Virus record (IMG/VR): IMGVR_UViG_3300030333_002703
Coordinates: 1 to 64,000 of that record
DNA from: a virus
Strand: one strand, 5' to 3'
Length of the DNA stretch: 64,000 bases
In this document: positions 508 through 40,390 of the stretch, in pieces
How the letters are laid out: each line of letters opens with the position of its first letter
Numbering within the stretch: the stretch's first letter is position 1
Notes under the pieces: generated by a model
What the model was told of the DNA's origin: nothing
The model's input: the letters and a program-made list of their open reading frames with translations, nothing else
Databases searched by the model: none
Translations under genes and position numbers: made by a program

Positions 508-921
508 ATGGCGGCTCCAATTGACCTCGCGTTCGCCATTTTGAAAATGCCATATCATGGGACTAGCCTTGCCAATGCCCAAAAAATTATGGAAGAAGGT
601 TTGAAACCTCATTACGGCGAATACAGTATTCATCATGATGCCCCTCCAGTATCTTGGGCAACAGATGATTTAGGTGAAGCAGCAGAATACGCAATTGATT
701 GGAGTAGCCTTGACGATACACCTGCGATTATCCATATTCCAGATGAGATAGAACCATTTGAGAATTGGGGAGATACATACCTATACGATAAGGTGATTCC
801 ACCTGACCAATTGAGTATTCACTGGCAAGGTGAACCATATAATCCAGAACAACATGATGACGAATGGGCTTGGCGTGAATTAAATGAAGAACTCGCCCAA
901 CTAAACAACAACCCTGATTAA
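508..921 (+). CDS. ADP-ribosyltransferase-fold (Tpt1/KptA/PARP-like) protein with N-terminal tag
   Basis: YHGTS..A..I..EGLKP and WATDDLGEAAEYA motifs, C-terminal IPP; N-terminus MAAPIDLAFAILK. Confidence 0.65.
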   Translation: MAAPIDLAFAILKMPYHGTSLANAQKIMEEGLKPHYGEYSIHHDAPPVSWATDDLGEAAEYAIDWSSLDDTPAIIHIPDEIEPFENWGDTYLYDKVIPPDQLSIHWQGEPYNPEQHDDEWAWRELNEELAQLNNNPD

Positions 922-943
922 CTGTTATCTTATCCCGTTGTTC
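915..943 (+). promoter_or_regulatory. Second copy of the putative promoter
   Basis: TGATTAACTGTTATCTTATCCCGTT; TAA core 25 nt before ATG 944. Confidence 0.6.
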
Positions 944-1426
944 ATGGGCCATCCAATTGACCACGCATTTCATTTTTTGAAAAAATCAATTGACGATGAA
1001 GATTGGGATGATGACCCTACAGACCCCATGCAAAACTTTTCTTGGTGGCAGGGGGGTGACAAACCCAGTGGTGGCAAACCCGAGGAAGGTGATTGGGGTA
1101 TGCACCCTACAGATGAAATGTTTATGTCAAAACAAGGAGATTATGTCAATGCAGAAGGCCGAATCTTATGTCAAATTGAAGCAGCAAAAGGTCGAGCAGT
1201 CCCTGCCACTTGGGTGGCAGTTGACCACGTTAATACGTACTTTTGTGACCCCCACTATGATGAAGTAGAAAGAGTGAATACAGGTCCAGAAACACTTGGC
1301 CCATTAACAGAAGAATCACAAGAAGAGTATGAGATAGCAAGGCATTGGTGGGATAATCACGTTCATCATAACCCTGAAGGATGGTATGCTGAACCTGTAA
1401 CAGATACAAAAGGCAACCCTATTTAA
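944..1426 (+). CDS. Acidic hypothetical protein with N-terminal tag
   Basis: ORF; MGHPIDHAFHFLKK|S; start chosen from promoter spacing. Confidence 0.75.
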   Translation: MGHPIDHAFHFLKKSIDDEDWDDDPTDPMQNFSWWQGGDKPSGGKPEEGDWGMHPTDEMFMSKQGDYVNAEGRILCQIEAAKGRAVPATWVAVDHVNTYFCDPHYDEVERVNTGPETLGPLTEESQEEYEIARHWWDNHVHHNPEGWYAEPVTDTKGNPI

Positions 1427-1449
1427 CTGCCCCCGCTTCCCAGACTAGT

Positions 1450-4431
1450 ATGACGGACCCGTTTGAGCAGGCGTTCCAGTCAGTTCGTAAGAGACAAAGT
1501 ACGTTACATGATTGGGATGATGATGCCATTGAAGATATCGGTCTCCCTCCTAAACCTCACCCTCAACATGGTGGTTATTCTGCTTTAGACCACAGCCTGC
1601 AAAATATCATTCTTCAAGCACGACCCGAAGCAGAAAAATTAGTTGAACAATGGGGAGAAAAAGTTCCATCTTGGATGGGATTAAATGCTGATGATTTCCA
1701 TGTTGTCACTTTACCCGGACATTTGGCTCATGAGGATTATGGTGGCGGTGAACGATACACTGGTCTAGATAGAACTGCCTTACAATCAAAAAGGAGAAAA
1801 AAATTGGAGGAGGGTGCTGACAGACCTGCGCCCCAACCATTCAAAACTCGTAGTGAAATGGCGGATTACCATAATATGCATGAATCAAGTCCAAGTGAAA
1901 CTTATTCTCAATCATGGATGATGGCTCCTATTCCTCACGCATTGGCAACTTTGATGCATCGTGGAATGCCATTTGACGAGGCTGCTAATAGAATCAAAAA
2001 TGGTTTGCATGACACCCACAAATATAAGGAAACGTACAAAGATAGCGAAGATATTCACAACTTTGTAGATGCAATTGGGAATACTCATGTTCCAATCGGA
2101 CATTTAACTATGAGAGGGCCAAGAGTATCTGAAATGTACATGACTAAATTGGGAGGAGAAGATGACAAATATGGACTTCAGCATCGAATTATGCCCAATA
2201 AAAGAATGCCTGTTATGGCAGGTTTAGGACTTGGAAGATTATTACAAGGTACTATGCTTCATAGATTAGGTTCAGATGCAATGGGTAGTGACAATCGTAC
2301 CATTTTTTCTGAAGGGCAAACTCAAGCCACTAAAACACAAGCAAAAGGCATACAACAACGTCTTAGAGAAAAATTGGAGGGAGCCGTTAGTTCAAGTCCT
2401 GCAGCAAGAGGTTTCCGAAGTCGAGCGCTTAATTTGAGAGACAAAATATCAGGCACATCTCGATTCGATGACCCAAAAAAGAAATTTGAAGAAACCATGT
2501 TTGCAGGATTGGTTCCGGGTTCTGTTGACGAACAAGATGCAACAAAAAATAGATTGATAAGCACACACGCGGCACAACTGGACTTAAGACCGGGGCCACA
2601 ATATGGAGTGGACCGAAAAACATGGGAAGATTTAGGTTGGGGAGATTTGAGACCTACATATGGCGCACAACATCATTTACCAAAAATAAACAGACCTGCA
2701 TCATCTCCGGTAAATCCTAATCCGAGTTTTAGTCAGAAGCCGTGGAGCAGAGAACATTTGCGACGACAACATCGTAATCTGTTAGAAAATAAATATGGTG
2801 AAGGTGATTGGCTCGATGATGCAGCGCGCAACTATAGACAACATGAAATGACACCCTTACCGCATGAGGTTGCAGAAGTACTGGGTTTGGACACTATGAA
2901 CCCCACATTGTCAACAACAATAGATGGTCAAAATGTTCCTTTAGCAAGATTACACGGCGACCCATACGTTTGGGATATACCAGAAGCACTAACAGAAAGA
3001 ATGAACAGACCTCAAGTAGTTCGTCAAATAAGAGATAGATTGCGTGATTTTGATGAGGGTGACAACGAATTGCCTGAAGATTATTTATATCAAACACAAT
3101 TGTCACAATGGCAACCGGGTGGTCGATTGCGGGAGAAAGAGCCATTTTTCGATGACCTTCCAGATGATATTGAAACTGGCGAACCGATGGAAATAGCGTA
3201 TCGTTTGTTAAAAAGCATCATGGATTTAGGCGCTGACGATGTTTCAACGCAACCAGAACAACCGTTACAAGCACCCGCCAATGTAATGGAAGAACCACCA
3301 AGAAAAGCATTGGGTATCATGGGTCATCATGATTGGCATGACCTTGAAAGATTCGATGACAAGATTGGAGAATGGATTGACATACACGGTATGCCAACTC
3401 ACATTGTATCGGATGGAAGCAGCGGCACAGGTGCAATGGCATCACAATGGGCGCTGGACAATGACATCCCAATTATTACTCACAAACCCAACTTCCGTGG
3501 TGGCAACCGATTCACTGCACCCGCACAAAGTCGGCAACGGATTGTCAATAGTTCTGACCATATTCTTGCATTCCCATCCATCAATGGTAGTGGTACAATG
3601 GAAGGTATCACAATGGCAAGGCAAGCGGGCAAACCAGTTCATTTGCATTACATTGAACACCCACATGATACGCCCATTAGCGAAGTAGGCACAGCCGAAG
3701 AACGAGAAAGACAAAGTCCGTGGTTGTTGGAACCAACGCCTGAACGCACATCACCTGAACCCGAAGTGCCACAAAGAACTCGCAGACAAGTGGGTGCAGC
3801 GCGCGGTCATCGCGGGCGACGTGATGACAATGTTGAAACGGGCGAGCCAATGGATATCTGGTCTCGTATGTTGAAAGAGGAACAAGGTGAGTGGGTTCCC
3901 GAAGAGCAACGTATGTCCGATGATGAATTGACTCACTTGCTAACATTCCCTGACTTACCTGAAGAAGTACGCGAAGATGTATTGCGAGAGATTCAACGTC
4001 GTCAAAATATCAATACAGGCGAACCAATGGATTTGTCATACCGTTTGTTGAAAGAAAGTATGATGGGAACAAAAGGTTGGCCCGAAGAAGAAGATGAAGA
4101 TGTATGTTGTAAAAATGCCAAAGCACATTACCGAGAAGTAGCAAATAATTCACCAGCAAAAACTTTCTTAGGTGGATGGAATAGTCCTAATGACCAGTAT
4201 ATGGAATGTGCCGAGTTTGAAATGTATCTCCGTGATGAAATCGAAGGTCTCCGAGATATGGCATCCATTCCAATGGTCGCTGACGCAATTACAGAATTAG
4301 AATCAGTATTAGACAATTGGGAACATTGTGATGAATACGATTTTAATGAATATGAAGAATTAAGACCTGAAGGTAGCGAAATCTTTACCGCAGGAGAACC
4401 TATGGACTTAGCGTGGAGGATGTTCAAATGA
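1450..4431 (+). CDS. 993-aa tagged polyprotein: possible GNAT-like domain, SLOG (YspA/DUF2493-like) domain, small helical and Cys-containing domains
   Basis: Five tag copies (N-term, 3172, 3835, 4012, C-term); SLOG pattern at 3301-3651 (GIMGHHDW, IVSDGSSGTGAMA, SDHILAFP..GSGT..GI..A...GKPV). Confidence 0.75.
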   Translation: MTDPFEQAFQSVRKRQSTLHDWDDDAIEDIGLPPKPHPQHGGYSALDHSLQNIILQARPEAEKLVEQWGEKVPSWMGLNADDFHVVTLPGHLAHEDYGGGERYTGLDRTALQSKRRKKLEEGADRPAPQPFKTRSEMADYHNMHESSPSETYSQSWMMAPIPHALATLMHRGMPFDEAANRIKNGLHDTHKYKETYKDSEDIHNFVDAIGNTHVPIGHLTMRGPRVSEMYMTKLGGEDDKYGLQHRIMPNKRMPVMAGLGLGRLLQGTMLHRLGSDAMGSDNRTIFSEGQTQATKTQAKGIQQRLREKLEGAVSSSPAARGFRSRALNLRDKISGTSRFDDPKKKFEETMFAGLVPGSVDEQDATKNRLISTHAAQLDLRPGPQYGVDRKTWEDLGWGDLRPTYGAQHHLPKINRPASSPVNPNPSFSQKPWSREHLRRQHRNLLENKYGEGDWLDDAARNYRQHEMTPLPHEVAEVLGLDTMNPTLSTTIDGQNVPLARLHGDPYVWDIPEALTERMNRPQVVRQIRDRLRDFDEGDNELPEDYLYQTQLSQWQPGGRLREKEPFFDDLPDDIETGEPMEIAYRLLKSIMDLGADDVSTQPEQPLQAPANVMEEPPRKALGIMGHHDWHDLERFDDKIGEWIDIHGMPTHIVSDGSSGTGAMASQWALDNDIPIITHKPNFRGGNRFTAPAQSRQRIVNSSDHILAFPSINGSGTMEGITMARQAGKPVHLHYIEHPHDTPISEVGTAEERERQSPWLLEPTPERTSPEPEVPQRTRRQVGAARGHRGRRDDNVETGEPMDIWSRMLKEEQGEWVPEEQRMSDDELTHLLTFPDLPEEVREDVLREIQRRQNINTGEPMDLSYRLLKESMMGTKGWPEEEDEDVCCKNAKAHYREVANNSPAKTFLGGWNSPNDQYMECAEFEMYLRDEIEGLRDMASIPMVADAITELESVLDNWEHCDEYDFNEYEELRPEGSEIFTAGEPMDLAWRMFK

Positions 4432-6089
4432 ATTGGTGGGAATTATTGAAACAATATAGCGTCGATGATGATTGGGAAGATTTTGACCCCGCCCTTCATG
4501 ATGTGAAAGAGTATTTGGCAGGTGTAGAAGGTCCACACATTAGTCCATATGAAGATGTAGAGAGAGCGACAGCAGGAGACATCATCGAAGATGCGCTACG
4601 GTCTGAAAAAGAATCGCGTGGGCAAGGTGGTGCAGGTCCACCACGTGGTCCCGGTGAAGACAGACCTGCACGTGGGCAATCGGCTTCCGTACCAATTAAA
4701 CCAAGAACAGATATGGGGTATCGTAGAGGAACAGGCAGTGAACCAAGTCGCGGATATATTCGACCACGAAATACACCATTGCCACCGCCGCGAGAAAATA
4801 CAGATAGAGAACAATTCAATTATTCACGTGTGCCGCGACGTATTTTGATGCCGGGTGAAGACGCTCGTGGTAATATCCAAGAGAGCGCTCGAAATATGCG
4901 TTGGCTTGAACCACCTGCACCGGGTTCAGATGAAAGTGCTATTGATGCAGCCGTTGAGTCAATAATGGGTCGTGGTGGTGTAACTGAGTTTGGTGATTTG
5001 GTCACTCACCCCGGTTCATTGATGACTGAAAGCGACCTCGCAGACAAATATCACGGTTCACCAATTCATTTAGACACTAGTGATGAGTTTGCCAATATAG
5101 CAGATTTGTTATCAGAAGATGACCTGACCCATGATGTAGCAGGTGTAATGTCAACTGGTGAGAAATATCCAGTCGAGTTCCAAGAGATAGCCGCTGAATT
5201 ACAAGATGACCCAGATGCTCCCACACCTCCTTGGAGTGTAGATGCAATGGAAGAGGCCATTCGTTCAGGTAAGGTAACACCTGAAGAATTAGAACTGTTC
5301 ATCAATCCTGAAAATCCTGACAGACTAACCACTCGTTCAACTATTGGAATGGACCCAATGACCGCAATGGAACTTGGATTGCCCCCATTTGGCACAGATG
5401 ATACGCCTACTGCTGAACGTCGAGTGCATATTGACCGTGACCCACAAGTGCATGAAATTATGGAAACAATAGAGGACCATCCAGATGATTTCGATATGGA
5501 AAGAATTATGGAAGGCGCACATCTTGGCCCAGAACATGATATTGCAGAGCCAACCTTTGCAGGCATTCCTTTCAGAGAAGATACTGGATTTACAATGGGT
5601 GAGCCAATGACACCGTTCAATGCAGCATGGACTTTGCTGAAATTCAATACTGGTGCAGATTACGGCCAACAGTCTGCATTAGATGATGATTTATCCAATC
5701 CGACAAGGCATTGGGATGACCCATCCATGAATGACTTACGTGACCAAGATTTCATGGAATACATGGATGAGTTGTATCAACGAAAAGTAGGAGGCGACCT
5801 TGAATCCGAAGCAATTTGGAATTGGTACACCAAAAATCATCCTGAAATAACAAATCAGATTGAAGAAACATACAGTGTTCCCGGTATGGAACCCGGCGCA
5901 CCAGAAGAAGGTGGCGTTGAAAGTGGCGGTAGTAATCGAGTGAAAGTAACATCCAGTCCCAGCGCACAATTGACTGCCGCTGCCAATCATCATGGATTTG
6001 AGTTTGATGAGTTCGGTAATTTAAGCAGGATAGAATCACCGACGGAATCTCCAAAATCAAAGTCAATTATGGATTTAGGTAGTGAATAG
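4428..6089 (+). CDS. Acidic, low-complexity tagged polyprotein
   Basis: ATGA overlap with upstream stop, GGAGG RBS; MNWWELLK start, internal GEPMTPFNAAWTLLK, C-terminal KSIMDLGSE. Confidence 0.75.
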   Translation: MNWWELLKQYSVDDDWEDFDPALHDVKEYLAGVEGPHISPYEDVERATAGDIIEDALRSEKESRGQGGAGPPRGPGEDRPARGQSASVPIKPRTDMGYRRGTGSEPSRGYIRPRNTPLPPPRENTDREQFNYSRVPRRILMPGEDARGNIQESARNMRWLEPPAPGSDESAIDAAVESIMGRGGVTEFGDLVTHPGSLMTESDLADKYHGSPIHLDTSDEFANIADLLSEDDLTHDVAGVMSTGEKYPVEFQEIAAELQDDPDAPTPPWSVDAMEEAIRSGKVTPEELELFINPENPDRLTTRSTIGMDPMTAMELGLPPFGTDDTPTAERRVHIDRDPQVHEIMETIEDHPDDFDMERIMEGAHLGPEHDIAEPTFAGIPFREDTGFTMGEPMTPFNAAWTLLKFNTGADYGQQSALDDDLSNPTRHWDDPSMNDLRDQDFMEYMDELYQRKVGGDLESEAIWNWYTKNHPEITNQIEETYSVPGMEPGAPEEGGVESGGSNRVKVTSSPSAQLTAAANHHGFEFDEFGNLSRIESPTESPKSKSIMDLGSE

Positions 6090-7234: not shown

Positions 7235-7351
7235 ATGATTGCATGGCTATGGTTTTTCATTCCACTATGGGTAACAGGATTCACGATTGGATTTTATGCC
7301 AAACGAATCAATCGCTGGTTGGATGAACCCAAAGCGTTTGTGATTAAATGA
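7235..7351 (+). CDS. Small single-TM peptide (38 aa)
   Basis: MIAWLWFFIPLWVTGFTIGFYAKRINRW..; GGTGG upstream. Confidence 0.55.
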   Translation: MIAWLWFFIPLWVTGFTIGFYAKRINRWLDEPKAFVIK

Positions 7352-7553
7352 TGATTCCTAGTAATCGCATTAATGCTTCAAGTTTAGGGTGGAAATCAGT
7401 GCCGATGCCATTTTCATCAGGTTTTTTTTCTTGTTCTTGTTCCCACGGTGCTTGAGGTGCAGAAGGCTCTACACGGTCCATATCTTCTGATACAACATCG
7501 TCAATATCGTCTTTGAGGAATGCCCATGCTTTTTCAATTGGTATGTTCATCAT
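7344..7553 (-). CDS. Small acidic protein with N-terminal tag
   Basis: MMNIPIEKAWAFLK; GGAGG RBS upstream of 7553. Confidence 0.7.
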   Translation of the reverse strand: MMNIPIEKAWAFLKDDIDDVVSEDMDRVEPSAPQAPWEQEQEKKPDENGIGTDFHPKLEALMRLLGIII

Positions 7554-8184
7554 ATTCTTGTCCTCCTTGTCCTCTAAGTTGATGTATCCAATAGTCACAT
7601 TTGTCAGCGATTTCATAATACAAGTTAAAATGTGGGTCGTCCATTCCTAACCTGTCAGCATTCCATGCTGATAAATCACCCATTTCCATCAATTTTTTTA
7701 TCATATGATTACGAAATTGTTCCCCTTCGGTAAGTGGCTCTCTTTGCATCATCGGGTCATTTTCTGATTCAAAAGTCAATTGTTCCACTCGTGGTGTAAT
7801 TCCTTCGATGTATTCTGCACCATCTATCATTCTATCAGGTTCGGTTTCATCGTAGTCATAATGTAAATCACCTACGTCAGGGTAACCTCGAAAGGTTGTA
7901 CGAGGCATTTTGATGATTGACCATGCTTTTTCAATTGGTTTGTATGTGCCACGTTCTTTGAAGTGACGTGCGCGGTTGTCGTGTGGATTTTCCAATGTGA
8001 CAGTATTGGCGCTGGTGTGAGATACGTCAGGGCCACCTTCCCCCATGATACCACGCTGACGGCGTTCTTGGTTGAGTTCTTCTCGGTATTTTACACGGTC
8101 AGGTGAGGATTCATATTTGGTATCGTATCGACGTTTATGCTCAAGCGCTTCTTTGGATTTGGCTCGCTTGACTAAGACCGTCAT
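7534..8184 (-). CDS. Two-part protein: basic HNH-like N-terminal domain + tag + acidic domain
   Basis: RR..G.MGEGGPDVSH...ENPHDNRARH resembles small phage HNH-like proteins; internal PIEKAWSIIK. Confidence 0.6.
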   Translation of the reverse strand: MTVLVKRAKSKEALEHKRRYDTKYESSPDRVKYREELNQERRQRGIMGEGGPDVSHTSANTVTLENPHDNRARHFKERGTYKPIEKAWSIIKMPRTTFRGYPDVGDLHYDYDETEPDRMIDGAEYIEGITPRVEQLTFESENDPMMQREPLTEGEQFRNHMIKKLMEMGDLSAWNADRLGMDDPHFNLYYEIADKCDYWIHQLRGQGGQEYDEHTN

Positions 8185-8237
8185 GGTATCGCCACATATA
8201 GAGTAGTTCATAACCTTCGCTGCCTTCGACCTATTAC

Positions 8238-9210: not shown

Positions 9211-9807
9211 ATGATTGACAGCGGCGGAAGCGGAAGAAACAACGATGACATATTGAGAATCATGGGATTCATTGGATTTGTATCTGTTTTGGTAGGGGCG
9301 GCGGTAGCCGTTTTTGATACTAAAATGTGGTTACACAGTGATGATGCATATTCCAATGCAATGACATATGCAATGGGAGCATTTACCCTACAAGGAATGT
9401 CATTTTTCCTATACAAATTACTATTGCAGGACCAAATGGATGACAAAGCCAGTTGGACACGCACACAAAGAATGCGTGACCGCCGCCTTCAAGATATGCA
9501 ATCTCAATTCGCAAACGCGCAATTGGAACAAGAATTGAAAGTGCGTCAAATGACATTGGAACGTCAATTGGCATTGATGGAACAGAACCCAGAAGCGTAT
9601 ATGCAAATGATGGGCGGTACAAGTTTGGGCATTTTGGATGACCAATTTAGACCTGTAACACCATTCTCTGATGGTGGAACTGACGACTTCAATCCCCCGC
9701 CAACACATAAGCAAAAAACTGACCAACCAATTACATTGGGCGTAGATTACGGTAAAGATGAGGAAGAGGAACCCAAAAAAGACACCAAAAAGAAAGGTGA
9801 CAAGTAA
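9211..9807 (+). CDS. Membrane protein (2 TM + coiled coil)
   Basis: Two hydrophobic helices, then a Q/E/L-rich coiled coil and a charged tail. Confidence 0.75.
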   Translation: MIDSGGSGRNNDDILRIMGFIGFVSVLVGAAVAVFDTKMWLHSDDAYSNAMTYAMGAFTLQGMSFFLYKLLLQDQMDDKASWTRTQRMRDRRLQDMQSQFANAQLEQELKVRQMTLERQLALMEQNPEAYMQMMGGTSLGILDDQFRPVTPFSDGGTDDFNPPPTHKQKTDQPITLGVDYGKDEEEEPKKDTKKKGDK

Positions 9808-10043
9808 TGGGATGGATTTTCAGAACTCCAAGTGATGACGCAGTTGAAGGCACATTGCGTCAATTACACATGGCAAATCAAGTTGACCGTGTGTATGAGC
9901 GAACTTGGGGTTGGCTGAAAGCATTGGTATGTTCTCTTATTGCCATGATGGTCACATCTGGATTTGAATACTATACGGCTGAAAGTATTTACCATGAATC
10001 ATTGGTATGGTTGTATGATAAAATTGTAGGATTATTCGATTAG
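9807..10043 (+). CDS. Small membrane protein
   Basis: TAATG overlap; hydrophobic segment WGWLKALVCSLIAMMVTSGF. Confidence 0.7.
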   Translation: MGWIFRTPSDDAVEGTLRQLHMANQVDRVYERTWGWLKALVCSLIAMMVTSGFEYYTAESIYHESLVWLYDKIVGLFD

Positions 10044-10054
10044 GTGGTTATGTT

Positions 10055-10780: not shown

Positions 10781-10789
10781 TGTGATAAA

Positions 10790-11770: not shown

Positions 11771-11790
11771 ACTAATGATGCATCCGAGGA

Positions 11791-29500: not shown

Positions 29501-32303
29501 AGACCATGCACATCAGGCTTTAGACAATGGAGAAATGGATTGTCCTGTATGTGGTGGCGATGGATACATTGACCCAGAAGATATGGGGGCTGAAATACCA
29601 GATGCTCGTGATATGATTAAGAGCATTATGGATTTGGGAGCAGGTAATGATGATAATGACAACCGAGTAGAATGTCCAAATTGTCACGGTGCAAAGAAAA
29701 TGCAATTACCATCTACATTCAATAGGGATAGTGTTCATGTACAACCTCATCACATTGAACATAAAGAACGTGAATTAACACAACAATTGGAAGATTGGTT
29801 AGCGACTCCACCGGAAGAACGTGACCCTGAAAAAGGAGATGCATGGTTCGATGAAATCGAAAGACAATTGACCAATATACCTTCAATTCATCCACTAGGT
29901 GGTGAAGGGCAATACTATAATAAAATGTCACGATTTGGTAGCAAGTTCTTATCTACACAAAATCTAGTTCGGAATGTAGCGGCATCATTGGCTGATAAAG
30001 TCCGAGCGCAATTTGAATCCGATGGATTGGGCGACCCATTCGGCCCTGATGAAAATGGTGATTGGTCACAAGCCCATGTGAATGCTATTGCATTGTGGTC
30101 TCACGCAAACGAATGGGCATTACGCGCACAACCACGACAACGTGATTGGCAAAACGACCAGATTTCAGGATACACAGGTCAGGAACCACGAGGAACGTAT
30201 TTGGATGAAAATGGGAAAGAGAGAAATGAGAAAACATGGGCGCATACATTCAAGCAACATGATGATACTGAAGCACCAGCGGCAGGTTCAGCGATTCATT
30301 ATCCGGGTTTTAGTAGTGATGGAGGTAATATCCAAAATGAGCCAATGTCATTACCATTGAGTATCTACAATAGTATGGGCCATCGAATGCGTCATGGTTG
30401 GGGTATGACACCAACATATGGTATATCATTCGATAATATGGGTACGCCTACTGTATTGCATAATGAGGGTAAGGCATCCACCCAACGTAACAAATATCTT
30501 AATGTTCCATTGGATGAATTACAACAGGTATTCCCTGAAATGCAAACAATGTCATCAGCACATCCATCTGCACCATCAGCCGAGGATAGACCTGAATCTC
30601 AAAAATTGAATGATATGGGAGACAGTATGGCATTCAGAATGAGTGAAGATGAACCTGCCGTATCTGACATTCTCAAAGCATTGACCAATCCAGACCTGCT
30701 CAAAGAAGATGCGCGGGTAAAACCTGTCAAAGCAGCACATCGTATTTTTGACCTTGATGACCTCAAACAACTACGTGGATTCAGTGATGATTGGGTGGTT
30801 AGTACATGGATTAAGGGTCATCGTGGTATTGCACGTAAAGAAGGTGACAAAGTATCTGTTCAATATGCTGATGGTTCATATTGCCCATTGACTGAAGATG
30901 CGAAGAAAGGACTACGAGAAGCACACGATGATGATTTCGTCATGGATGTTATCGTAGGGAAGAACAAGCGTATTACAGTCATTGATTTGTTGGAACATGA
31001 TGGTAGAGAATTGTATGAAGAGCCACTCAAAGACCGATTAACCAAATTAAGGTCTAACTTTGAAAGCACTGACGATGTACATATGCCCGCCCCATTCAAT
31101 ACACGACGTACTGACGACGAAGGATTATCAACTGCTATCAGTAGTTTAGCAGATGAGGAAAATGATGGGTTCTTACTACGTGATGCGATTTCAACTTACA
31201 TGAAAGGTGAACCACGACATCCGAAATGGGTGTTGCTACGTAAGCAAAAGGAAGTTGATGTCATTATTCTTGACCGACGTGGCCGTGGCCCTTACACATA
31301 TCAATTGGGTATAGGCCCAATCAATCCTGAAAAGGGTGAGTCACTTGGCAACCGAGCAGTACAACGTGGTGATAAATGGTTCATGGATGTAGGCACAATT
31401 ACGCGGGAATCCAAAGCATTCAATGAAGGTGATTATGTGCAAGTATCTGTATCAAGTGTATCTCACAAAGAGCGTGATGGTGAAGATGTGTACGATTTAC
31501 AAACTCGGAGTATCATAGGTGAGACAAGTACCGAGGCCACAGATAGTGTAGATACATTGTGTCTTTTGACTAAATCATACGCTCCATTGATTTGGCCGCA
31601 TGATGTTGTCGTTAATCGTAGTGATGTACAAGTATTGTTGCACGGATTAAATGATACTGTTATCTATAAGATGAACAAATGGGACAATGGTTGGGCATTA
31701 CATCAACCAATTAGCCTATTAGGTGATTTATCCAATAGTGATTACAGCATTCATTTGTCTGAAAGCCTACGCCCATTTTGGGAACCGATTGTTGGTATGA
31801 CCTTGAAAGGTCTCATCAAGGTAGATTACAACCCACGTGATACGAAAGACAAAACACGTGATGAGAAAGAAGAAGAGGAAGAGGAACATTCCCACGAATC
31901 TGGATTCAAACTACCAAAACCAAAACGAATGGATGAAGAACAGATTCTTAAACCTGAAATGACCAAGATGGTTGTGCAAGCGTTGACGTTGATTGATGAT
32001 GTTATCTCTAAAGAAAAAGCCACATGGACTGGCGCACGTGGAATGGGTATCGGATTGGGTACACCAGATAGCGCACCACGTGGACCTACTGAAATTACAC
32101 AAGATGTCAATACATTGGATTACGATATGAGGCAACGTGATGATGAAAAAACCGAGAAGCCTAGAAAGAAACCTAAGAAAATGCAAGGTGAGCCTCATCC
32201 AATGACTGCTTCTGTTACTACAGATGAGGGTGAAAAGGGCAAAATTAGGGTCACAAACGAAGAAGCGGCCTTAGAAATGGAGCCTGAAAATCCCTTTGAG
32301 TAG
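26589..32303 (+). CDS. 1904-aa protein with DnaJ-type Zn finger and degenerate ATP-dependent DNA ligase-like C-terminal region
   Basis: CPVCGGDG..CPNCHG; ligase-like IDLL...PL.DRL..L, DGFLLRD..S.YMKG.PRH.KWVLL, then OB-like region; KxDGxR replaced by WIKGHR. Confidence 0.75.
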   Translation: MAVDTPYDFHLRNKHELYRSLCDGLELENAAANYLFSKSNAIRHNVFQQSSEEQALNYAADSILKRAKKDWRSEEEKKYREEYHRKQTSEQFGLSDEDWIPRLAQFTDGHKDPRHSHSSWPTMGDVDPTIAYGGISPWDLSVLTANSEWGSPEWLRALSDVWEPQGNDDDPEHHYNWIENQIKEHEGHHALGFHNKDHYLGPIEGDAPSDLYEKHFARWKAEAAPPEVLDMSLGDQKQAHLDLYKRVWAGKERDPLADISDTGSHQLGFLGYALGLEWLTPSQRDDVINHINQNGVTREIPHVSHGWMNRNWMGRFLAGEATQRLRDPSHAGSSLTATHHGFETDDQKEHHNARRLHDAMLDTLVYSEDNPVTGAKKGEPVHGYWAEDEQGDTRWVHSHDTDSGAAPAYRLRGMDDAKFDSRLMSDQQMRRIGAESLQDHILSKPENRVKRSVKVSGKTTPQNVEFGVMPRLLRLEEGGHDNVHRGNFAFKSTEKSTNEALLEHHNKPIWDQELQHWLDTGVIDENQATAMKARRKELHEHYNRRRQVQNGTGAYLNMYHFMGGDENDIRMSPFARFIMMHHAQGGGGMDSMNMFSELNHMFHHDVWGNPDGGLFTIGDAVTSGWEPMKLEEGQSPMDFPENIWPRARGMEGDDREAGQIREGSSFKGKGITLRRNQIRDGMASLIGALQDQPIDTWRDAGTSPLLNLAHGGNTDIHQQLMISSDPHFHEMIRDGMKGLKIGKLNPYKDTPGGSGLNNLYNEARLTIHHASDKLGKAGMKNLALLAALWGRWNENPAEAQLASGPPPFLETGKMNETAFTQDLLPKKLMALARREGTHLIPGHPGDTDLQSRVKQFLLHSNLMRQLNVETPLALESPASDVYESDRGVPTLSAQFPGGGPAPEGITPTSWGPHPGEEESDPDIGWLDPNIPRGKWFFHNKDKDVSHNTYLPLEVNIGGGKTQMITPTFDFQDHAHQALDNGEMDCPVCGGDGYIDPEDMGAEIPDARDMIKSIMDLGAGNDDNDNRVECPNCHGAKKMQLPSTFNRDSVHVQPHHIEHKERELTQQLEDWLATPPEERDPEKGDAWFDEIERQLTNIPSIHPLGGEGQYYNKMSRFGSKFLSTQNLVRNVAASLADKVRAQFESDGLGDPFGPDENGDWSQAHVNAIALWSHANEWALRAQPRQRDWQNDQISGYTGQEPRGTYLDENGKERNEKTWAHTFKQHDDTEAPAAGSAIHYPGFSSDGGNIQNEPMSLPLSIYNSMGHRMRHGWGMTPTYGISFDNMGTPTVLHNEGKASTQRNKYLNVPLDELQQVFPEMQTMSSAHPSAPSAEDRPESQKLNDMGDSMAFRMSEDEPAVSDILKALTNPDLLKEDARVKPVKAAHRIFDLDDLKQLRGFSDDWVVSTWIKGHRGIARKEGDKVSVQYADGSYCPLTEDAKKGLREAHDDDFVMDVIVGKNKRITVIDLLEHDGRELYEEPLKDRLTKLRSNFESTDDVHMPAPFNTRRTDDEGLSTAISSLADEENDGFLLRDAISTYMKGEPRHPKWVLLRKQKEVDVIILDRRGRGPYTYQLGIGPINPEKGESLGNRAVQRGDKWFMDVGTITRESKAFNEGDYVQVSVSSVSHKERDGEDVYDLQTRSIIGETSTEATDSVDTLCLLTKSYAPLIWPHDVVVNRSDVQVLLHGLNDTVIYKMNKWDNGWALHQPISLLGDLSNSDYSIHLSESLRPFWEPIVGMTLKGLIKVDYNPRDTKDKTRDEKEEEEEEHSHESGFKLPKPKRMDEEQILKPEMTKMVVQALTLIDDVISKEKATWTGARGMGIGLGTPDSAPRGPTEITQDVNTLDYDMRQRDDEKTEKPRKKPKKMQGEPHPMTASVTTDEGEKGKIRVTNEEAALEMEPENPFE

Positions 32304-32355
32304 TATTGTAGTATCATAGGTGGTATCATATACCATTACAACACGTGGTGTGCCA

Positions 32356-33747
32356 ATGGTTCTTAGCGTAGCCCGGCCAGCCAGCGCAGTTTTGCTTAAG
32401 GCACACCGAGTTGACGACCTTGTGATTGCGGGCTATGCGAGTGTCGAACTTGTGGATAAACAAGGTGACTTGATTACTACAGGTGCGCTCAATAAGGCAT
32501 TCAAGAAGTTCATGGCGAACCCGCAATATAGCAATGTGCAACTAGCACATTCTAACATCCAAGTGGGTGAAGTCATTCCAGAATATACTGATACAAATGG
32601 CCGTATGTGGAAGTCCGAGGTAGATGATACCGGACTATTCGTAGTTATCAAACTACGAAATGACATTGAAAAGGCCCGAGAAGTTGCCGCAGAAATTAGA
32701 AAAGGCAATCTTCGTTCATTTTCCATTGGTGGTCAGGCGTTTAAGCGCGTCAACAAATCGGACGGAATGCGCGGTTCATACCGTGAAATCCAAGATATGG
32801 AACTTCACGAAGTAACAATTTGTGAAAAGGGCATCAATACGGAATCTACCTTTAAGATATTGAAGGAGGACAAAAACATGGCAGAAACAGAAGTTGTGGA
32901 ACAGTTGCACAATGTTCTGGAGCGTCTATCCAAGCGATTGGATGAGTCGGAAGGCGTGGAAAAGGGCAAGCCCCCATTCCTTGAAGACGACAAAGACGAC
33001 AAGGACAGCGGCGACGACAAGAAAGAAGGTAAGTCCGACAAGGACAAAGACGAAAAGATGGCATATTCAGATGAAGATGGCGACCAAGCGAACAAGGGAT
33101 TCGATGACGTTATCACAACTGAATACCTCAATTGGATGGAGAACACCCTAAAGGGCGCAGGTGTCGATACACACGCTGCTCGCGCACACTTTGACAGTGT
33201 GAACAAGGGATACCGACCTGAAGACAAGAGCGACCACCGAGGCCAACCCCCATTGGGTATTGTTGGCGAAGGTATCAGCGCACCCAAAGCCAATTTCGGT
33301 AGCGGGAAGCCTAAGGGTAACAAGTTCGCAATCCGCGCATCTCAAGATGCATGGTCGCCACCACGTGGCAACCAATTTGTCATCAAGGAAAACGTGACCG
33401 CTGCACAGGTCGAACAGGCTTACGAAGTCTACAAGGCCGCAGCAATGGAGCAGCAGTTCAAGGGCGAACTCAACGAAGCATTCGCAGAACGCCTAAACAA
33501 CGAACTCATGCACAAGCAAAATGCAGAAGAAAAGGCAGCATACGATGCCCGAACCGATGTATCCAGCCTACAGAAGGCTGTCCTTGAATTGGCAAACCGC
33601 ATTGACAACATTTCATCCGGTGAAGGTAGCGTATCAATCCGCAAATCTGCACCATCCGTTGAGATTCCCACAACAGAAGCATTGGCTGACATCAGTTGGT
33701 CCGATGTTCACAGCCTTGCTAACAAGGCACTAATGGGAGGCGAGTAA
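32356..33747 (+). CDS. Prohead protease (HK97-type) fused to C-terminal scaffold
   Basis: IAGYAS..VDKQGD, H.N..VG, GLFV, SFSIGG, LHEVTIC; charged coiled-coil C-terminus; directly upstream of MCP; start inferred from promoter spacing. Confidence 0.88.
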   Translation: MVLSVARPASAVLLKAHRVDDLVIAGYASVELVDKQGDLITTGALNKAFKKFMANPQYSNVQLAHSNIQVGEVIPEYTDTNGRMWKSEVDDTGLFVVIKLRNDIEKAREVAAEIRKGNLRSFSIGGQAFKRVNKSDGMRGSYREIQDMELHEVTICEKGINTESTFKILKEDKNMAETEVVEQLHNVLERLSKRLDESEGVEKGKPPFLEDDKDDKDSGDDKKEGKSDKDKDEKMAYSDEDGDQANKGFDDVITTEYLNWMENTLKGAGVDTHAARAHFDSVNKGYRPEDKSDHRGQPPLGIVGEGISAPKANFGSGKPKGNKFAIRASQDAWSPPRGNQFVIKENVTAAQVEQAYEVYKAAAMEQQFKGELNEAFAERLNNELMHKQNAEEKAAYDARTDVSSLQKAVLELANRIDNISSGEGSVSIRKSAPSVEIPTTEALADISWSDVHSLANKALMGGE

Positions 33748-33748
33748 T

Positions 33749-34891
33749 ATGGCACGAGATTATATCCGAACAATACAGGACATGGAGCGATACTATTACG
33801 GCGCAGGTAACGTAAGTGGCTACTCATACAGTGGCGCAGACATCCTCAAGGCCGATGCACCGCTTCTAAGCACGACAGCAGGAACATACCAAGCAATCTA
33901 TGGTCGCAAGGTCTGGTCGCAACTGAACCAAGAGTTCAACGCATTCAGCATTTTGCCCAAGAAGCCTTGGGAGAAGAGTGGTTGGAGAATCATTACCTCT
34001 AAGCCATCGTTCACCAAGGGTGGCGGTGTTGCGGAGAATGCAACCCTTCCTGACACGACCAAACCAACCTTCCTACACGTGGCTGCAAAGCCCAAGACGG
34101 TTGCTCACACATTCGATATGAGTGAAGTGGCAATCTTCCTTGCCGACAAGGACGACGGCCTCGGTGACATCCGACAGGTATTGAAGGAAGAAATGGGTAA
34201 GCACCACGCAGACCACGTGAACGTAATGCTCACAACTGACGTGGAAACACCAGCCGGTAACGATTTCGAGTCTCTTGACCGATTGACAACCAACCCATCA
34301 ACCATCAACAACGCGAACAGTTACGTGTCAGCAAACACTGACAACGATATGTACTCGATTACACGTGACAGCGGTGGAGATGCATGGGAGGCTGCTGAAG
34401 TCAGCGCATCAGGAACAAAAGGCACTAACCGAACATTGAGCCTTGACCATCTTGATACCATGTTCCAGCAAATCTGGACTCGTGGTGGTAATCCAAAGGT
34501 CATGTTCACTGGCTATGACACACTCATGCGTGTTCAGCAACTACTACAGACCCAGCAGCGCTTCATGGAAACCAAGCGTGTCACCCCATCGTTCAACGGT
34601 GTAAAGGGTGTACCCGGTATCGAAGCAGGATTCATTGTGGCTACCTACAACGGTGTCCCAATCATCCCAAGCAAGGACGTACAAACTGACGGCATCAGTC
34701 GTATCTACTACCTCGACACGGATTATTTGTGGTTCCAAACCGCAATTCCAACCCAGTACTTTGAGAGCGGTATTGAATCCGGCGACCCATTCGCCATCAA
34801 CCGCCTCGGTCAGGAAGGTCTGTATCGAACAATGGGTGAACTGATTGTGTCTTTCTACGGCGCACAGGGGAGTGTTCGTGACCTCTCGTGA
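33749..34891 (+). CDS. Major capsid protein (HK97 fold)
   Basis: Follows protease; 380 aa; G.V.E.A.LP E-loop region, YNGVPIIPS; codon usage of a highly expressed gene. Confidence 0.9.
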   Translation: MARDYIRTIQDMERYYYGAGNVSGYSYSGADILKADAPLLSTTAGTYQAIYGRKVWSQLNQEFNAFSILPKKPWEKSGWRIITSKPSFTKGGGVAENATLPDTTKPTFLHVAAKPKTVAHTFDMSEVAIFLADKDDGLGDIRQVLKEEMGKHHADHVNVMLTTDVETPAGNDFESLDRLTTNPSTINNANSYVSANTDNDMYSITRDSGGDAWEAAEVSASGTKGTNRTLSLDHLDTMFQQIWTRGGNPKVMFTGYDTLMRVQQLLQTQQRFMETKRVTPSFNGVKGVPGIEAGFIVATYNGVPIIPSKDVQTDGISRIYYLDTDYLWFQTAIPTQYFESGIESGDPFAINRLGQEGLYRTMGELIVSFYGAQGSVRDLS

Positions 34892-34927
34892 GGTTGTTGA
34901 GGAGAATAACAAGGAGTAGTGAAAAAT

Positions 34928-35335: not shown

Positions 35336-35336
35336 G

Positions 35337-36277: not shown

Positions 36278-36293
36278 TGCGGGGTGAAACCTC

Positions 36294-36725: not shown

Positions 36726-36735
36726 TGGTGATTGA

Positions 36736-37011
36736 ATGAATGGGCTATCCCTCAAAGATATTGACCGTATGAACAAACATGGATGGTCAAAAGCCCAAGA
36801 ACTCAAGCCAGCCGATGAAGGCATTGCGTGGGAGAACTACGCAATTAAAAAACAAAACACCCGCAATCGTCAGATTGCTGATGTATTGAACATTGGTGCT
36901 GGCACACGTTGTAAGCACTGTGGTATGTTACATCTATGTTGGGTTGCCAAATGCGCTACGTGTGGGCAAGATATGGATTACAACCTAGGTAAAACGGAGG
37001 CAGTTCGATAA
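36736..37011 (+). CDS. Small Zn-ribbon protein
   Basis: CKHCG...CATCG. Confidence 0.75.
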   Translation: MNGLSLKDIDRMNKHGWSKAQELKPADEGIAWENYAIKKQNTRNRQIADVLNIGAGTRCKHCGMLHLCWVAKCATCGQDMDYNLGKTEAVR

Positions 37012-37970
37012 TGGTTGAATCATGTAAAGTTTGTAATGCTGAATCATCACCTGATTCATATTACTGTAGAGTCTGTCGTGAGTCGATGGGAACTGACGAA
37101 TCATCAACATCTACTGATTTTCGTATGAGTTACCCTATGGCTTTTGACTATGCATGGGCGTTGATGAAAAACTTTACACCTATACCTATATCTGATGAAG
37201 AGGCAAAAAAACTCTTGATAGCGCATGGTATTCCTCATGGTGATGGTTCATCAAGAGAACATGGAGAAGATGCACCACCTAATCCATTACGGCATACCTA
37301 TCCTCCTACAAGTGTAATGGCGATTTCTCGTGGTATTCCACAAGAAATTGCACAAAGCCAAGCCATTGGTATAGGGCATCATCCATTGTCGGCCTTGTAT
37401 CGAGATGAAGAGGGTAAGGGAAATCCCATTGAAACGACAGATATTTCTACTGACCCTTTGAAACCCAGCGCCACTACACCTATACCTTGGAACCGCCAAC
37501 GTGAATTAGGGAGGCCAATGTCTTTCACAGATGAGATGTCAGCAGATGCCGCAAATACCATGCATAGAGATATGGCACGAACCAATCCAAACCCGCCAGA
37601 ACAACGGCAACGAAGTCGTCAAGAAGCACCATATTTGTATGACGAACAAGGGCGATATGTTGGCGAAGGTCGTGGTAAAACAGAAAATGTCATTGCGACA
37701 TCCAATGATACTGTCAGCGTAGTTATGCAGATTCTCAAACAAGGAGATTTGAATAAATCGGCTTGGGAAGCGAGGCGAGAAGGACGGCGATACGGACCCT
37801 ATGGCCCTCCGACAGATGAATGGGAGTGTGATGAATGCGGTAAGCGCATCGGATTTACTGAAATCGGTGGTCAAGCCAAAAACGGCCCTCTTTGCATAGG
37901 GTGTGTTCAAAGGTATGTCGAGAACAGAAGAAGGAATAATCCACGTTGGATGTATGAGGAAGGGGCATGA
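37011..37970 (+). CDS. Tagged mosaic protein with N- and C-terminal Zn ribbons
   Basis: CKVC..CRVC; FRMSYPMAFDYAWALMK; CDEC..CIGC. Confidence 0.7.
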   Translation: MVESCKVCNAESSPDSYYCRVCRESMGTDESSTSTDFRMSYPMAFDYAWALMKNFTPIPISDEEAKKLLIAHGIPHGDGSSREHGEDAPPNPLRHTYPPTSVMAISRGIPQEIAQSQAIGIGHHPLSALYRDEEGKGNPIETTDISTDPLKPSATTPIPWNRQRELGRPMSFTDEMSADAANTMHRDMARTNPNPPEQRQRSRQEAPYLYDEQGRYVGEGRGKTENVIATSNDTVSVVMQILKQGDLNKSAWEARREGRRYGPYGPPTDEWECDECGKRIGFTEIGGQAKNGPLCIGCVQRYVENRRRNNPRWMYEEGA

Positions 37971-37975
37971 TTTGA

Positions 37976-39577
37976 ATGCCCACAGTATTTCAACCCGGTG
38001 AACGCGCACCAGAACCTATTGACCCAGATGCAGTCATCTATACGACCGCACAGAAAGTCGGTGAACTACTACAGATTCCACCCGCAGACCCGGTGGATTT
38101 AGCAGGTAACGCATCTGCATCTGATACATCTGTCGATATATCACCCATTGATTTTCGGAATACTGGATTTGAAGTAGGGGATGAAATTGAGATTGAAAGT
38201 GATGCAACATTGGTTGAGACACGTACAATTACTGCCATTACATTGAGTAGTGGCAATGCACGATTGGCATTCACAGGTGGTCTATCGTATGCACATACTA
38301 CTGCCAACAATGCCACCGTGCGTAACAATGCTATATTCACCAATGGCAAACTACGTGGTGTATCTAGAACACACGTTGAGACCTTGATTAAACGTCACCA
38401 AGACCGCATTGACAACATCTGCAATAACTCATGGCGACCTATGTTACAGGTTGCTGAATACAAGATATTTGATACTTACAAGCCATACCGACGCCGATAC
38501 TACACAGACTATGTTGGGACCACACCACTCTTATTCCGTAATGTTCAGCAGATTCTACGATTAGAGGTATGGCAAGGGCAAGATTACAAGGAATTGGCAG
38601 GTGCTGAAGTCCGATTGAAAATCATTGACCATTCAGCATTGGCAAGTGATGGTGTGTATCTGTGTCCGGGTGGTGGCGGTGTATTCACTTTGAACGTGGG
38701 TACAGATAGCGATACATGGAATGCATCGTTTGACAATGCGACAACCGCACAACAACTTGCAGACCTCATCAATAAGGATGGTCGTAGAAACAAAAATGCA
38801 GTCGCGTCATCGACCAATTACACATTGGAAGATTCGTATTCATCTAGTGGTACTGTGCAAGCCAAAGTCCACAATGAGTTCTTGGCATCAGCCAATGCTG
38901 ATTACGGCATCGCACGTGTCAAAATCAGTAGTATGCGTCGAGCGGCAGGTGGCACACAATCTACTATTGCCGCATCAGACCTGACAAACATTGAGTTTAG
39001 TCAACATGGTACTGCTACTACAACATCGACAAGTGTATCTAGCACTACTGTCAATGTCGCTTCTACTGCCGATTTCGTATCGCATGGACTCATTATGGTA
39101 GGTAGTGGCACATCAGTTGAGGTCTTGTCATATACGGGTAAAACCGCGACATCATTTACAGGATGCGCCAACGTCAAAGGAACCCCATTGACGACACTGA
39201 ATACAGGTGGAACGACAGCATTCCAATACCAATTCGCCATTGACTATCAAGGTTCCACCGCAACAGGTGATGAAGCCCGATTGAAGGATTGGTGGTTTGA
39301 CCCTGAAATGGGTGTCATATATTTCAACAATTCATATCCATTCTTTGAGTGGAATGCGGTCAAAGTTACGTATGTGTATGGCGAGCGGTACGTCGAAAAG
39401 GCCATTGAGGACATCGTGACCAAGTTGGTTGCTATGGACTTGATTACGGCTGATGACCGTTCAGTTCTAATTCCCGAAGGAACCACCAACATTGACCTAG
39501 GTTCCAAGTATCAACTATTCAAGCAACAGGTTGCCGAGACCTTGCCACGATATGTGGAGGTTGTTACACTTGACTAG
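37976..39577 (+). CDS. Head-tail adaptor/neck protein with inserted beta domains
   Basis: IYTTAQKV..L, I.RHQDRID, VKVTYVYG..VEKAIEDIVTKLVA connector-like motifs; position. Confidence 0.65.
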   Translation: MPTVFQPGERAPEPIDPDAVIYTTAQKVGELLQIPPADPVDLAGNASASDTSVDISPIDFRNTGFEVGDEIEIESDATLVETRTITAITLSSGNARLAFTGGLSYAHTTANNATVRNNAIFTNGKLRGVSRTHVETLIKRHQDRIDNICNNSWRPMLQVAEYKIFDTYKPYRRRYYTDYVGTTPLLFRNVQQILRLEVWQGQDYKELAGAEVRLKIIDHSALASDGVYLCPGGGGVFTLNVGTDSDTWNASFDNATTAQQLADLINKDGRRNKNAVASSTNYTLEDSYSSSGTVQAKVHNEFLASANADYGIARVKISSMRRAAGGTQSTIAASDLTNIEFSQHGTATTTSTSVSSTTVNVASTADFVSHGLIMVGSGTSVEVLSYTGKTATSFTGCANVKGTPLTTLNTGGTTAFQYQFAIDYQGSTATGDEARLKDWWFDPEMGVIYFNNSYPFFEWNAVKVTYVYGERYVEKAIEDIVTKLVAMDLITADDRSVLIPEGTTNIDLGSKYQLFKQQVAETLPRYVEVVTLD

Positions 39578-40007
39578 TCCAATTGATTTCGCATGGGCTG
39601 TAATGAAAGCACCTATTGATTCTCACGGTTATTCAGATTTACCCCGCGATATGTTCGATGAAAATGTAGGAATAATGTCTAATCAAGAAGAGCAAGATTG
39701 GTATGATTTTATAGCGAAACTGCCTTTTGATATGGACAACGATTTGACTGATGAAGAACAACAAATGATTGTTGGTATTTTCAATAGACTGTATGAAGGT
39801 GATGCTCACATACTACACCCTGATGACGATTTTGATGCAAGGGGCATGATATTCATTGAGGATTATGGGGAAGTGCCAAAAGAAGATTACTATAATGCCG
39901 AATGGTGGTGGAATCATCCACACGGACACATCAATAGCATACGAGATGAGTATGAATCTATTGAAGAACTTCAAGCAGATTTAGACAAGGAACGAGGGGC
40001 GGTTTGA
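39570..40007 (+). CDS. Acidic tagged protein
   Basis: TTG start after GGAGG; TSPIDFAWAVMK|A. Confidence 0.7.
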   Translation: MTSPIDFAWAVMKAPIDSHGYSDLPRDMFDENVGIMSNQEEQDWYDFIAKLPFDMDNDLTDEEQQMIVGIFNRLYEGDAHILHPDDDFDARGMIFIEDYGEVPKEDYYNAEWWWNHPHGHINSIRDEYESIEELQADLDKERGAV

Positions 40008-40390
40008 TGCACCCAATTGACCACGCATGGGCCGTATTGAAAGCCAATGAAGTAGTTATTGATGGTGTCACATACGTGCCACAACAAGAACAGCCGCAAC
40101 AAGAAGAACCTGCACCTACTGGAAGTGATGTACCGTGGGCTGGTCGCACTATTGCGAATCAAGGTGGATGGAAAGATTTTGGTCGCCGTATGATGGCAGG
40201 ATTTAGAACCCGCGATGACCAAGGTAATAGAAGTACTATGATGGATAAATTACGCGGAGCAATGGAGCAACGCCAACAACAATTGTCTGCGCCCAATCCT
40301 GAAGCAGATTCACCATTAGCGACGGAAGAAGAAAAACCTAGGTCTATTATGGATTTAGTGCCAGATGAGGATGACCCCGAGGCATGGTGA
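40004..40390 (+). CDS. Tagged low-complexity protein with SIMDL motif
   Basis: MHPIDHAWAVLK|A; RSIMDLVP. Confidence 0.72.
   Translation: MMHPIDHAWAVLKANEVVIDGVTYVPQQEQPQQEEPAPTGSDVPWAGRTIANQGGWKDFGRRMMAGFRTRDDQGNRSTMMDKLRGAMEQRQQQLSAPNPEADSPLATEEEKPRSIMDLVPDEDDPEAW

Follow-up and report, generated by a model that had tools for sequence, protein, structure and literature searches.

A ten-residue peptide of consensus [PA]-h-[DEN]-x-[AS]-W-x-h-L-K (h, hydrophobic) recurs on unrelated proteins encoded in the first 64,000 nucleotides (nt) of the IMG/VR virus record IMGVR_UViG_3300030333_002703 (positions 1 to 64,000, this whole stretch being called the window below). Its statistical specificity, its modularity, the selection acting on it, and its distribution within genomes and among lineages lead to the well supported conclusion that this tag is a real, selected, and portable docking helix. 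The role we favor, with a probability of about 0.45 and by analogy with the internal proteins of phage T4, is that of an address that would load swappable enzymes into the virus head, with cutting.

The window carries the genes of a tailed archaeal virus, with a terminase large subunit (20518-21957), a portal (23452-25383), tail tube and tape-measure-like genes, and a major capsid protein about 34% identical to those of the haloviruses HVTV-1 and HCTV-1. Close relatives are found on hundreds of IMG/VR contigs, each about 100 kb long. Magroviruses infect Poseidoniales, which are among the most abundant archaea of the surface ocean, and most magrovirus genes have no known function; one tag unites around a hundred such gene families in a single functional class, for which a common fate is proposed here. 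We know of no publication that describes the tag. The window agrees with group A magroviruses (viruses of Poseidoniales) as published (PMC5434244), and a search of that paper for relevant terms gives no description of the tag.

Specificity and anatomy of the tag

The 17 peptides listed in the original prediction, copies of P-h-[DE]-x-[AS]-[WFY]-x-h-[LMI]-K, are all located in the window sequence (Table 1) and are carried by 12 open reading frames (ORFs), as had been claimed. Three of the coordinates given then (508, 944, and 1450) are ORF starts, with the peptides themselves beginning at 517, 953, and 1459, and two of the copies, PFEQAFQSVRK (1459) and the truncated MNWWELLK (4428), are weak. 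The tagged ORFs are 505-921, 938-1426, 1450-4431 (five copies), 4413-6089 (two copies), 14137-14856, 14849-15868, 15865-17238, 37011-37970, 39531-40007, and 40004-40390, together with, on the minus strand, a small ORF from about 7553 to 7344 and 7534-8211. Once the tags are masked, the bodies of these proteins have nothing in common except one marginal match of 27 residues, so that the downstream domains are indeed unrelated. Where two tags share a residue, the codon is identical in only 57% of cases; the codons differ as noted before, and the conservation is thus at the protein level.

A matrix built from the window's own tags gives 15 matches at or above a threshold of 12 bits, against 0.43 in shuffled DNA. 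An independent matrix was derived from 147 distinct tags, all taken from other contigs, and applied to the proteins of the window and of two complete relatives: G001 (110 kb), whose terminase is 86% identical, and G002 (107 kb), which has terminal repeats. It finds 31 sites of at least 13 bits versus 0.05 in shuffled proteins, and recovers ten window sites with scores of 14.7 to 30 bits. Over the loci, a loose regular expression yields 158 distinct sites on the capsid-gene strand versus 14 on the opposite strand. A chance origin of the tag is excluded by its own matrix, by the independent matrix, and by the strand comparison.

With one position allowed to vary and all others fixed, the terminal residue is Lys in 54 cases and Arg in two, the aromatic residue is Trp in 54 of 77, position 5 is Ala in 54 cases versus Ser in four, and position 9 is Leu in 46 of 54. 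Position 1 is Pro or Ala, position 3 is Asp, Glu, or Asn, and position 8 is hydrophobic in nearly all copies. Such a pattern fits an N-capped amphipathic helix, with positions 2, 5, 6, 8, and 9 on one hydrophobic face, a Pro and an acid at the start, and a Lys at the end; the residue spacing agrees with the amphipathic helix proposed originally. In an AlphaFold2 model of the 138-amino-acid (aa) protein 505-921, which is poor overall (mean predicted local distance difference test, pLDDT, of 50), residues 5-13, which correspond to the tag, are helical.

The tag occurs in three forms. At N-termini it reads M-N-P-h-[DE]-x-A-W-x-h-L-K, inside proteins (T)-G-E-P-M-[DE]-x-A-[WY]-R-L-L-K, and at C-termini it has the internal form again, with mostly two residues and then the stop codon behind it. 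The residue after the Lys of 184 N-terminal tags is Ala in 67 (36%), and Ala, Ser, or Gly in 54%. A Met stands directly after the Lys in 12% of N-terminal tags (for the window, compare 547-549 and 7939-7941), which suggests that tags were grafted ahead of older start codons. Untagged forms may alternatively be made from this second start.

The tag Lys is encoded by AAA in all 14 strong tags of the window (AAA makes up 70% of the Lys codons there, for a chance of about 0.006), and by both AAA and AAG in relatives. An acidic D-W-[DE]-D element is found 6-10 residues past the tag in three window genes that adjoin one another (998-1009, 1510-1521, and 4467-4478); as a general companion of the tag it is rejected, being found in three of 184 tagged ORFs. 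The peptide PFKLIWGLLK in a tape-measure-like protein sits in a hydrophobic stretch and is taken for a chance match.

Modularity, payloads, and distribution

The magrovirus loci that were retrieved contain 184 complete ORFs with a tag at the N-terminus, which group into 98 families without similarity between their bodies. With the 12 proteins of the window, they bear out the claim of a portable tag on unrelated proteins. Among six tagged window proteins tested, only one has full-length homologues in 160 related loci; the conserved slots of the window's tagged genes hold other tagged genes in relatives, as for the 319-aa protein 37011-37970, whose slot is filled by different ones. The homologues of the 138-aa protein retain the N-terminal tag, and the internal tag of the 457-aa protein 15865-17238 is present in close relatives only. 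Within families, conservation is higher at the constrained tag positions than over the bodies: for eight multi-member families, identity is 0.71-0.94 at the former and 0.25-0.83 over the latter, with 0.10-0.53 at the two free positions of the tag.

The 993-aa protein 1450-4431 carries five tags. The SLOG-like unit that follows its first internal tag (Pfam YAcAr, E = 6e-5) matches a separate protein of G001 with an N-terminal tag of its own, and the Cys-rich unit at its end terminates on a tag in three relatives as well. Given these correspondences, the tags mark module junctions.

The body of the 138-aa protein opens with MPYHGT...GLKP right behind the tag Lys, and many tagged ORFs of relatives run on in a similar way as K-[AM]-P-..-[FY]-H-[GA]-T. 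A profile of four sequences of this protein gives weak and mutually coherent matches to the RNA 2'-phosphotransferase Tpt1 (E = 0.045) and to PARP16, and an Atlas search leads to PARP and Arr clusters; the body is probably of the ADP-ribosyltransferase fold. A Pfam search with the 98 family representatives yields isolated matches to HD_4, GNAT, DnaJ-type and other zinc fingers, and DUF6321. The proposal of effector payloads stands in part: most tagged bodies have no assignable function, and some look like enzymes (ADP-ribosyltransferase-like, SLOG, GNAT, and HD).

Conserved proteins of the virus can also bear the tag. The two proteins encoded directly 5' of the terminase gene have C-terminal tags in many relatives, and one of them is tagged at both ends; the window versions (669 and 429 aa) have degenerate tags only. 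An Atlas search with the conserved 669-aa protein gave nothing usable.

Tags lie almost exclusively on the capsid-gene strand. In four complete genomes, a DNA pattern for [DE]-x-A-W-x-x-h-K has 23 matches, all 23 of them on that strand, with a single match for the reversed-pattern control. The gene maps of G001 and G002 place no tag in the replication modules (about 43 kb), so the exclusion from replication genes on which the original prediction was to be checked is found. Also as described there, tags occur on both strands and within the connector operon: two window tags are on the minus strand (7344-8211), and those at 14152-16302 lie within the head-gene run. Indeed, from 9211 to 34891 the window genes leave no gap of 60 nt or more, and this run comprises the tagged genes 14137-17238 and the terminase, portal, protease, and capsid genes. 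Further on, the tagged genes 37011-40390 are flanked by head-completion genes on one side and by tail genes on the other. The capsid-strand block begins with the largest tag island (505-6089), beside a divergent region, and in some contigs up to ten tagged genes occur within 14 kb.

In IMG/VR, the N-terminal pattern is found in 83 stretches; 80 of these were retrieved, with magrovirus proteins encoded in 76 and the other four being short fragments of long contigs. The N-terminal form is essentially restricted to magroviruses. For prokaryotes, its DNA pattern was scanned, in the N-terminal form only, in one genome per species (185,579 species, 596 Gb). This gives 26 matches, of which 21 are the internal motif YSPDMNPIExAWxxLK of IS630/Tc1 transposases, and none in any archaeal genome.

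Proposed head loading and competing explanations

The partner of the docking helix is most likely a part of the assembling head, with cutting after the Lys by the S78 protease as the most likely sequel. A late protein with a tag would dock on a conserved part of the assembling head, most likely the scaffold domain that is fused to the protease, or the inner surface of the capsid protein, and would thereby be incorporated into the procapsid. The S78 (HK97-type) prohead protease would then cut after the Lys, where residues follow, so as to release N-terminally tagged cargo and to divide the multi-tag proteins. The cargo would remain in the head and exit together with the DNA. We infer the loading, the cut, and the co-ejection from the analogy with the T4 capsid targeting sequence (CTS), from the Ala after the Lys, and from weak resemblances in the scaffold. 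The strand and operon distribution, the T4 precedent, the enzyme-like payloads, and the strict Lys followed by Ala favor this reading, together with two sites in head proteins (an arrow marks the presumed cut). Ala is enriched behind the near-invariant tag Lys as it is at the conserved ILK↓AD of the capsid protein, a possible maturation site, and an LLK↓A/G precedes the protease domain near the N-terminus of the protease-scaffold protein. In HK97, whose protease belongs to this family, the capsid protein is cut by that protease after Lys103.

The protease-scaffold fusion is both the candidate cutter and a candidate docking partner. In 50 homologues, its residues E365, A367, Y368, V370, and K372 are invariant (E-x-A-Y-x-V-x-K), and its tail WSDVH resembles W-x-h-L-K. 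A mimicry of the tag by the scaffold is left as a lead because neither patch scores with the tag matrix. The W-S-D-V-H-type tail may be the true capsid-binding helix of the scaffold.

Several observations weigh against head loading. The tag-like patches of the scaffold fit the loose pattern [DE]-x-A-Y-x-x-h-K with a tag-matrix score below zero. HVTV-1 encodes homologues of the capsid protein and of the protease, and yet no such tag occurs in the late half of its genome. What follows the Lys varies, above all in internal tags. Sixteen distinct tags stand at extreme C-termini, mostly with two residues beyond the Lys, which a removable leader would not explain, and the conserved protein adjoining the terminase gene has a tag at each end, where a cut would achieve nothing. 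The island 505-6089, by its position at the opening of the capsid-strand block beside the divergent region, could be expressed early. Five capsid-strand proteins have a further peptide in common, SIMDL (3214-3228, 6063-6077, 18917-18931, 29622-29636, and 40343-40357). In two of them it stands immediately behind h-h-K, the 993-aa protein having RLLK-SIMDLGA and the 1904-aa protein of the head module DMIK-SIMDLGA; at the counterpart junctions of G002 the sequence is RLLK-ASMP. Behind tags, SIMDL may be a shared junction or point to a second hub outside the head. Of the docking and cleaved leader proposed originally, the portable helix and the near-invariant Lys agree with it, and the C-terminal, double-ended, and multi-tag proteins do not fit a simple removable N-terminal leader: the tag is more than that.

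The closest parallel is the T4 CTS. Its sequence is MKTYQEFIAE, to which the magrovirus tag has no likeness, and one of its bearers, Alt, is a packaged ADP-ribosyltransferase. The internal proteins of T-even phages are diverse, with only the CTS conserved, and it loads them into the scaffolding core (PMC3012670). In both systems, a short conserved peptide marks unrelated, fast-changing proteins (IPI-III and Alt in T4) whose genes are variable cassettes in conserved surroundings, and one payload class is, in magroviruses probably, that of ADP-ribosyltransferases. The end of the magrovirus peptide may likewise resemble sites in head proteins. The relation is one of analogy and not of homology, and the host here is an archaeon. 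The magrovirus protease is of the S78 HK97 type, with a presumed cut after Lys, whereas T4 gp21 (S77) cuts after Glu; the magrovirus tag can also be internal, C-terminal, or multi-copy, and it has around a hundred candidate cargo families instead of a handful.

Other systems share parts of the arrangement. The Dar proteins of phage P1, several accessory proteins of one HK97-fold head, enter it in a defined sequence and presumably exit with the DNA, some of them after N-terminal processing (PMC12810830, PMC9024508). In this they parallel the proposed cargo; they differ by having no short common tag and by a loading that needs DarA and Hdf, which line the capsid. Encapsulin cargo peptides are short terminal peptides that dock diverse cargo to the inner face of an HK97-fold shell, and the window's shell protein is of HK97/SU10 type. 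Those peptides are, however, extended, rich in Gly, Ser, and Leu, usually C-terminal, and uncut, with no genome, protease, or ejection involved. The polyvalent proteins of phages and conjugative elements, reportedly described by Iyer and colleagues in 2017, are long proteins with several effector domains, encoded by head-module genes and thought to be cut, a description that the 993-aa and 1904-aa window proteins fit; they have no known repeated junction peptide that also heads separate small genes.

The wider proposal is that magroviruses, which rank among the most abundant viruses of ocean archaea, would run a programmable cargo system. A ten-residue helix would suffice to load members of any of over a hundred enzyme families into a head of HK97 fold, from which, once freed by the protease, they would be delivered with the DNA as a fast-evolving kit for takeover and counter-defense. 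We offer it tentatively, at rather less than even odds. If head loading holds, an archaeal virus would possess a large arsenal of virion-delivered enzymes (ADP-ribosyltransferase-like, GNAT, HD, and SLOG) and the first capsid-targeting system known in such a virus, with a cargo diversity far beyond that of T4, and the tag would be a short peptide to try for packing foreign proteins into HK97-fold shells.

A less likely explanation, and the most serious competitor, is a general docking motif without encapsidation, by which accessory proteins would plug into a common partner outside the head. This partner might be a viral late protein, for example of the conserved small-GTPase membrane module (9211-12707), or else a chaperone or a host factor. 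The tag is position-independent, short, selected position by position, and present on many clients, as for a short linear docking motif. The PIP box, which binds PCNA, offers a parallel: it is likewise short, position-independent, often in flexible regions, and found on many unrelated clients of one hub; it differs in sequence, and the tag is tied to the capsid-gene strand and not to replication proteins. The acceptance of the tag at N-terminal, internal, and C-terminal positions and at both ends of one protein speaks for such a motif, as do the up to five copies in one protein, the presence of SIMDL in the same proteins, the density of tagged genes in some contigs, and the position of the island 505-6089. 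It accounts poorly for the tag-free replication modules and for the tags within head and tail operons, and it gives no obvious role to a near-invariant Lys followed by Ala; nothing yet speaks for mimicry of a host motif, since the N-terminal form, the only one scanned, occurs in no archaeal genome among one per species. Should the tag dock on a hub other than the head, identification of that hub would expose a central node of infection.

There is only a slim chance that the tag is a processing signal and nothing else, a site at which the prohead protease or another viral protease divides precursors or removes leaders with no targeting involved. The rarity of Arg in place of the Lys, the enrichment of Ala behind it, the location of tags at module junctions, and the similar h-h-K↓A ends in the capsid protein and protease would be explained. 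The helical spacing (i, i+3, i+4, i+7) is not that of the extended P4-P1 residues usual for protease sites, a 12-residue leader made just for removal would be purposeless, and there is nothing to release behind C-terminal tags.

Slimmer still is the chance of self-association, in which the helices, perhaps with those of the scaffold, would bundle with each other into an inner head core or a cytoplasmic assembly. Multi-tag proteins could act as cross-linkers, the hydrophobic face of the helix is broad, and the scaffold contains loosely similar conserved helices; the motif is, however, short for a stable bundle, and its acidic and Lys caps suggest a defined partner.

That the tags are non-functional, either relics of IS630/Tc1 transposases or a chance or compositional repeat, can practically be set aside: the transposase motif YSPD[LM]NPIExxWxxLK has nearly the same letters over 11 residues (compare 7512-7541 and 40013-40042) and accounts for the 21 of 26 prokaryotic matches, but it is internal and holds the third catalytic acid; it is a look-alike and not a relative. 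Tags, by contrast, are terminal or in linkers, Pfam detects no transposase domain in any of the 98 representatives of tagged families, selection within families is position-specific, and chance predicts about 0.05 sites where 31 are observed.

Feature coordinates and neighboring genes

Table 1. Tag copies of the window and possibly related sites in head proteins (bits refer to the independent matrix)
Feature	Positions	Strand	Context
PIDLAFAILK, N-terminal tag	517-546	plus	138-aa protein 505-921; 20.1 bits
PIDHAFHFLK, N-terminal tag	953-982	plus	162-aa protein 938-1426; 14.8 bits
PFEQAFQSVRK, weak N-terminal tag	1459-1491	plus	993-aa multi-tag protein 1450-4431; below the 9-bit cut-off
GEPMEIAYRLLK, internal tag	3178-3213	plus	993-aa protein; scored by the independent matrix; followed directly by SIMDL (3214-3228), then by the SLOG-like unit
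GEPMDIWSRMLK, internal tag	3841-3876	plus	993-aa protein
GEPMDLSYRLLK, internal tag	4018-4053	plus	993-aa protein; scored by the independent matrix
GEPMDLAWRMFK, C-terminal tag	4393-4428	plus	993-aa protein; stop codon immediately 3' (4429-4431)
MNWWELLK, truncated weak tag	4428-4451	plus	start of 558-aa protein 4413-6089
GEPMTPFNAAWTLLK, internal tag	5598-5642	plus	558-aa protein 4413-6089; 30.0 bits
(MMNI)PIEKAWAFLK, N-terminal tag	7512-7541	minus	small ORF ending at 7344
PIEKAWSIIK, internal tag	7909-7938	minus	225-aa protein 7534-8211; 25.8 bits; Met after Lys
(MN)PMEVAWLVLK, N-terminal tag	14152-14181	plus	239-aa protein 14137-14856; scored by the independent matrix
(MN)PLEIAWVMLK, N-terminal tag	14864-14893	plus	339-aa protein 14849-15868; scored by the independent matrix
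EPMESAWDDLIIK, internal loosened tag	16264-16302	plus	conserved basic low-complexity 457-aa protein 15865-17238
PMAFDYAWALMK, tag after zinc ribbon	37134-37169	plus	319-aa protein 37011-37970; 26.9 bits
PIDFAWAVMK, N-terminal tag	39579-39608	plus	protein 39531-40007; scored by the independent matrix
(MH)PIDHAWAVLK, N-terminal tag	40013-40042	plus	128-aa protein 40004-40390; 29.5 bits; SIMDL near the C-terminus (40343-40357)
123-aa head-module protein	25787-26158	plus	scaffold tail motif recurs in the C-terminal part (EMDWSEIHDLA)
Prohead protease (S78) fused to scaffold-like C-terminal domain	32320-33747	plus	Pfam, PHROGs
AVLLK↓A	32386-32403		site in protease-scaffold
VEQAYEVYK	33409-33435		site in protease-scaffold
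WSDVHSLA, tail	33697-33720		site in protease-scaffold
Major capsid protein, HK97/SU10 type	33749-34891	plus	L33, K34, D36, and P38 invariant (GADILK↓ADAP, 33833-33862)

No solved structure matches the capsid protein by sequence, and in its AlphaFold2 model (41 close homologues, pLDDT of 32) the position of ILK↓AD in the fold is unreadable. The 123-aa protein, which is missed by longest-ORF gene calling, and the protease-scaffold tail have in common the motif [MI]-[DS]-W-[SA]-[DE]-[IV]-H-x-L-A, a pairing also present in G001 and G002. For the 1904-aa protein 26589-32303, encoded between portal and protease, Pfam gives a weak match to an ATP-dependent DNA ligase domain (E = 1.4e-5), consistent with the ligase reported in the magrovirus structural module. 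This protein has the look of a head protein with several domains.

The 429-aa protein 19222-20511 contains a glycine-zipper-like hydrophobic stretch (19816-19872) within a long Gly/Gln/Ala-rich region, and the 457-aa protein 15865-17238 is basic and rich in Arg, Gly, and Pro. Either could plausibly be an internal or an ejection protein.

The sequences upstream of the operons revealed no promoter in common, and the candidate early-promoter motif TTYATATMCTCC is absent from the window. A G+C-rich stretch on the 5' side of the first tagged gene (300-440) contains GGGGGGGTTTTACCC twice (363 and 410) and TTTTACCC once (300), and may be a regulatory or terminal element. At the other end, an ORF of more than 5600 codons (47186-64000) runs past the end of the window. 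Its counterparts in relatives have 5545-5980 aa and follow the tape-measure region, and in G002 tagged genes come after this giant ORF.

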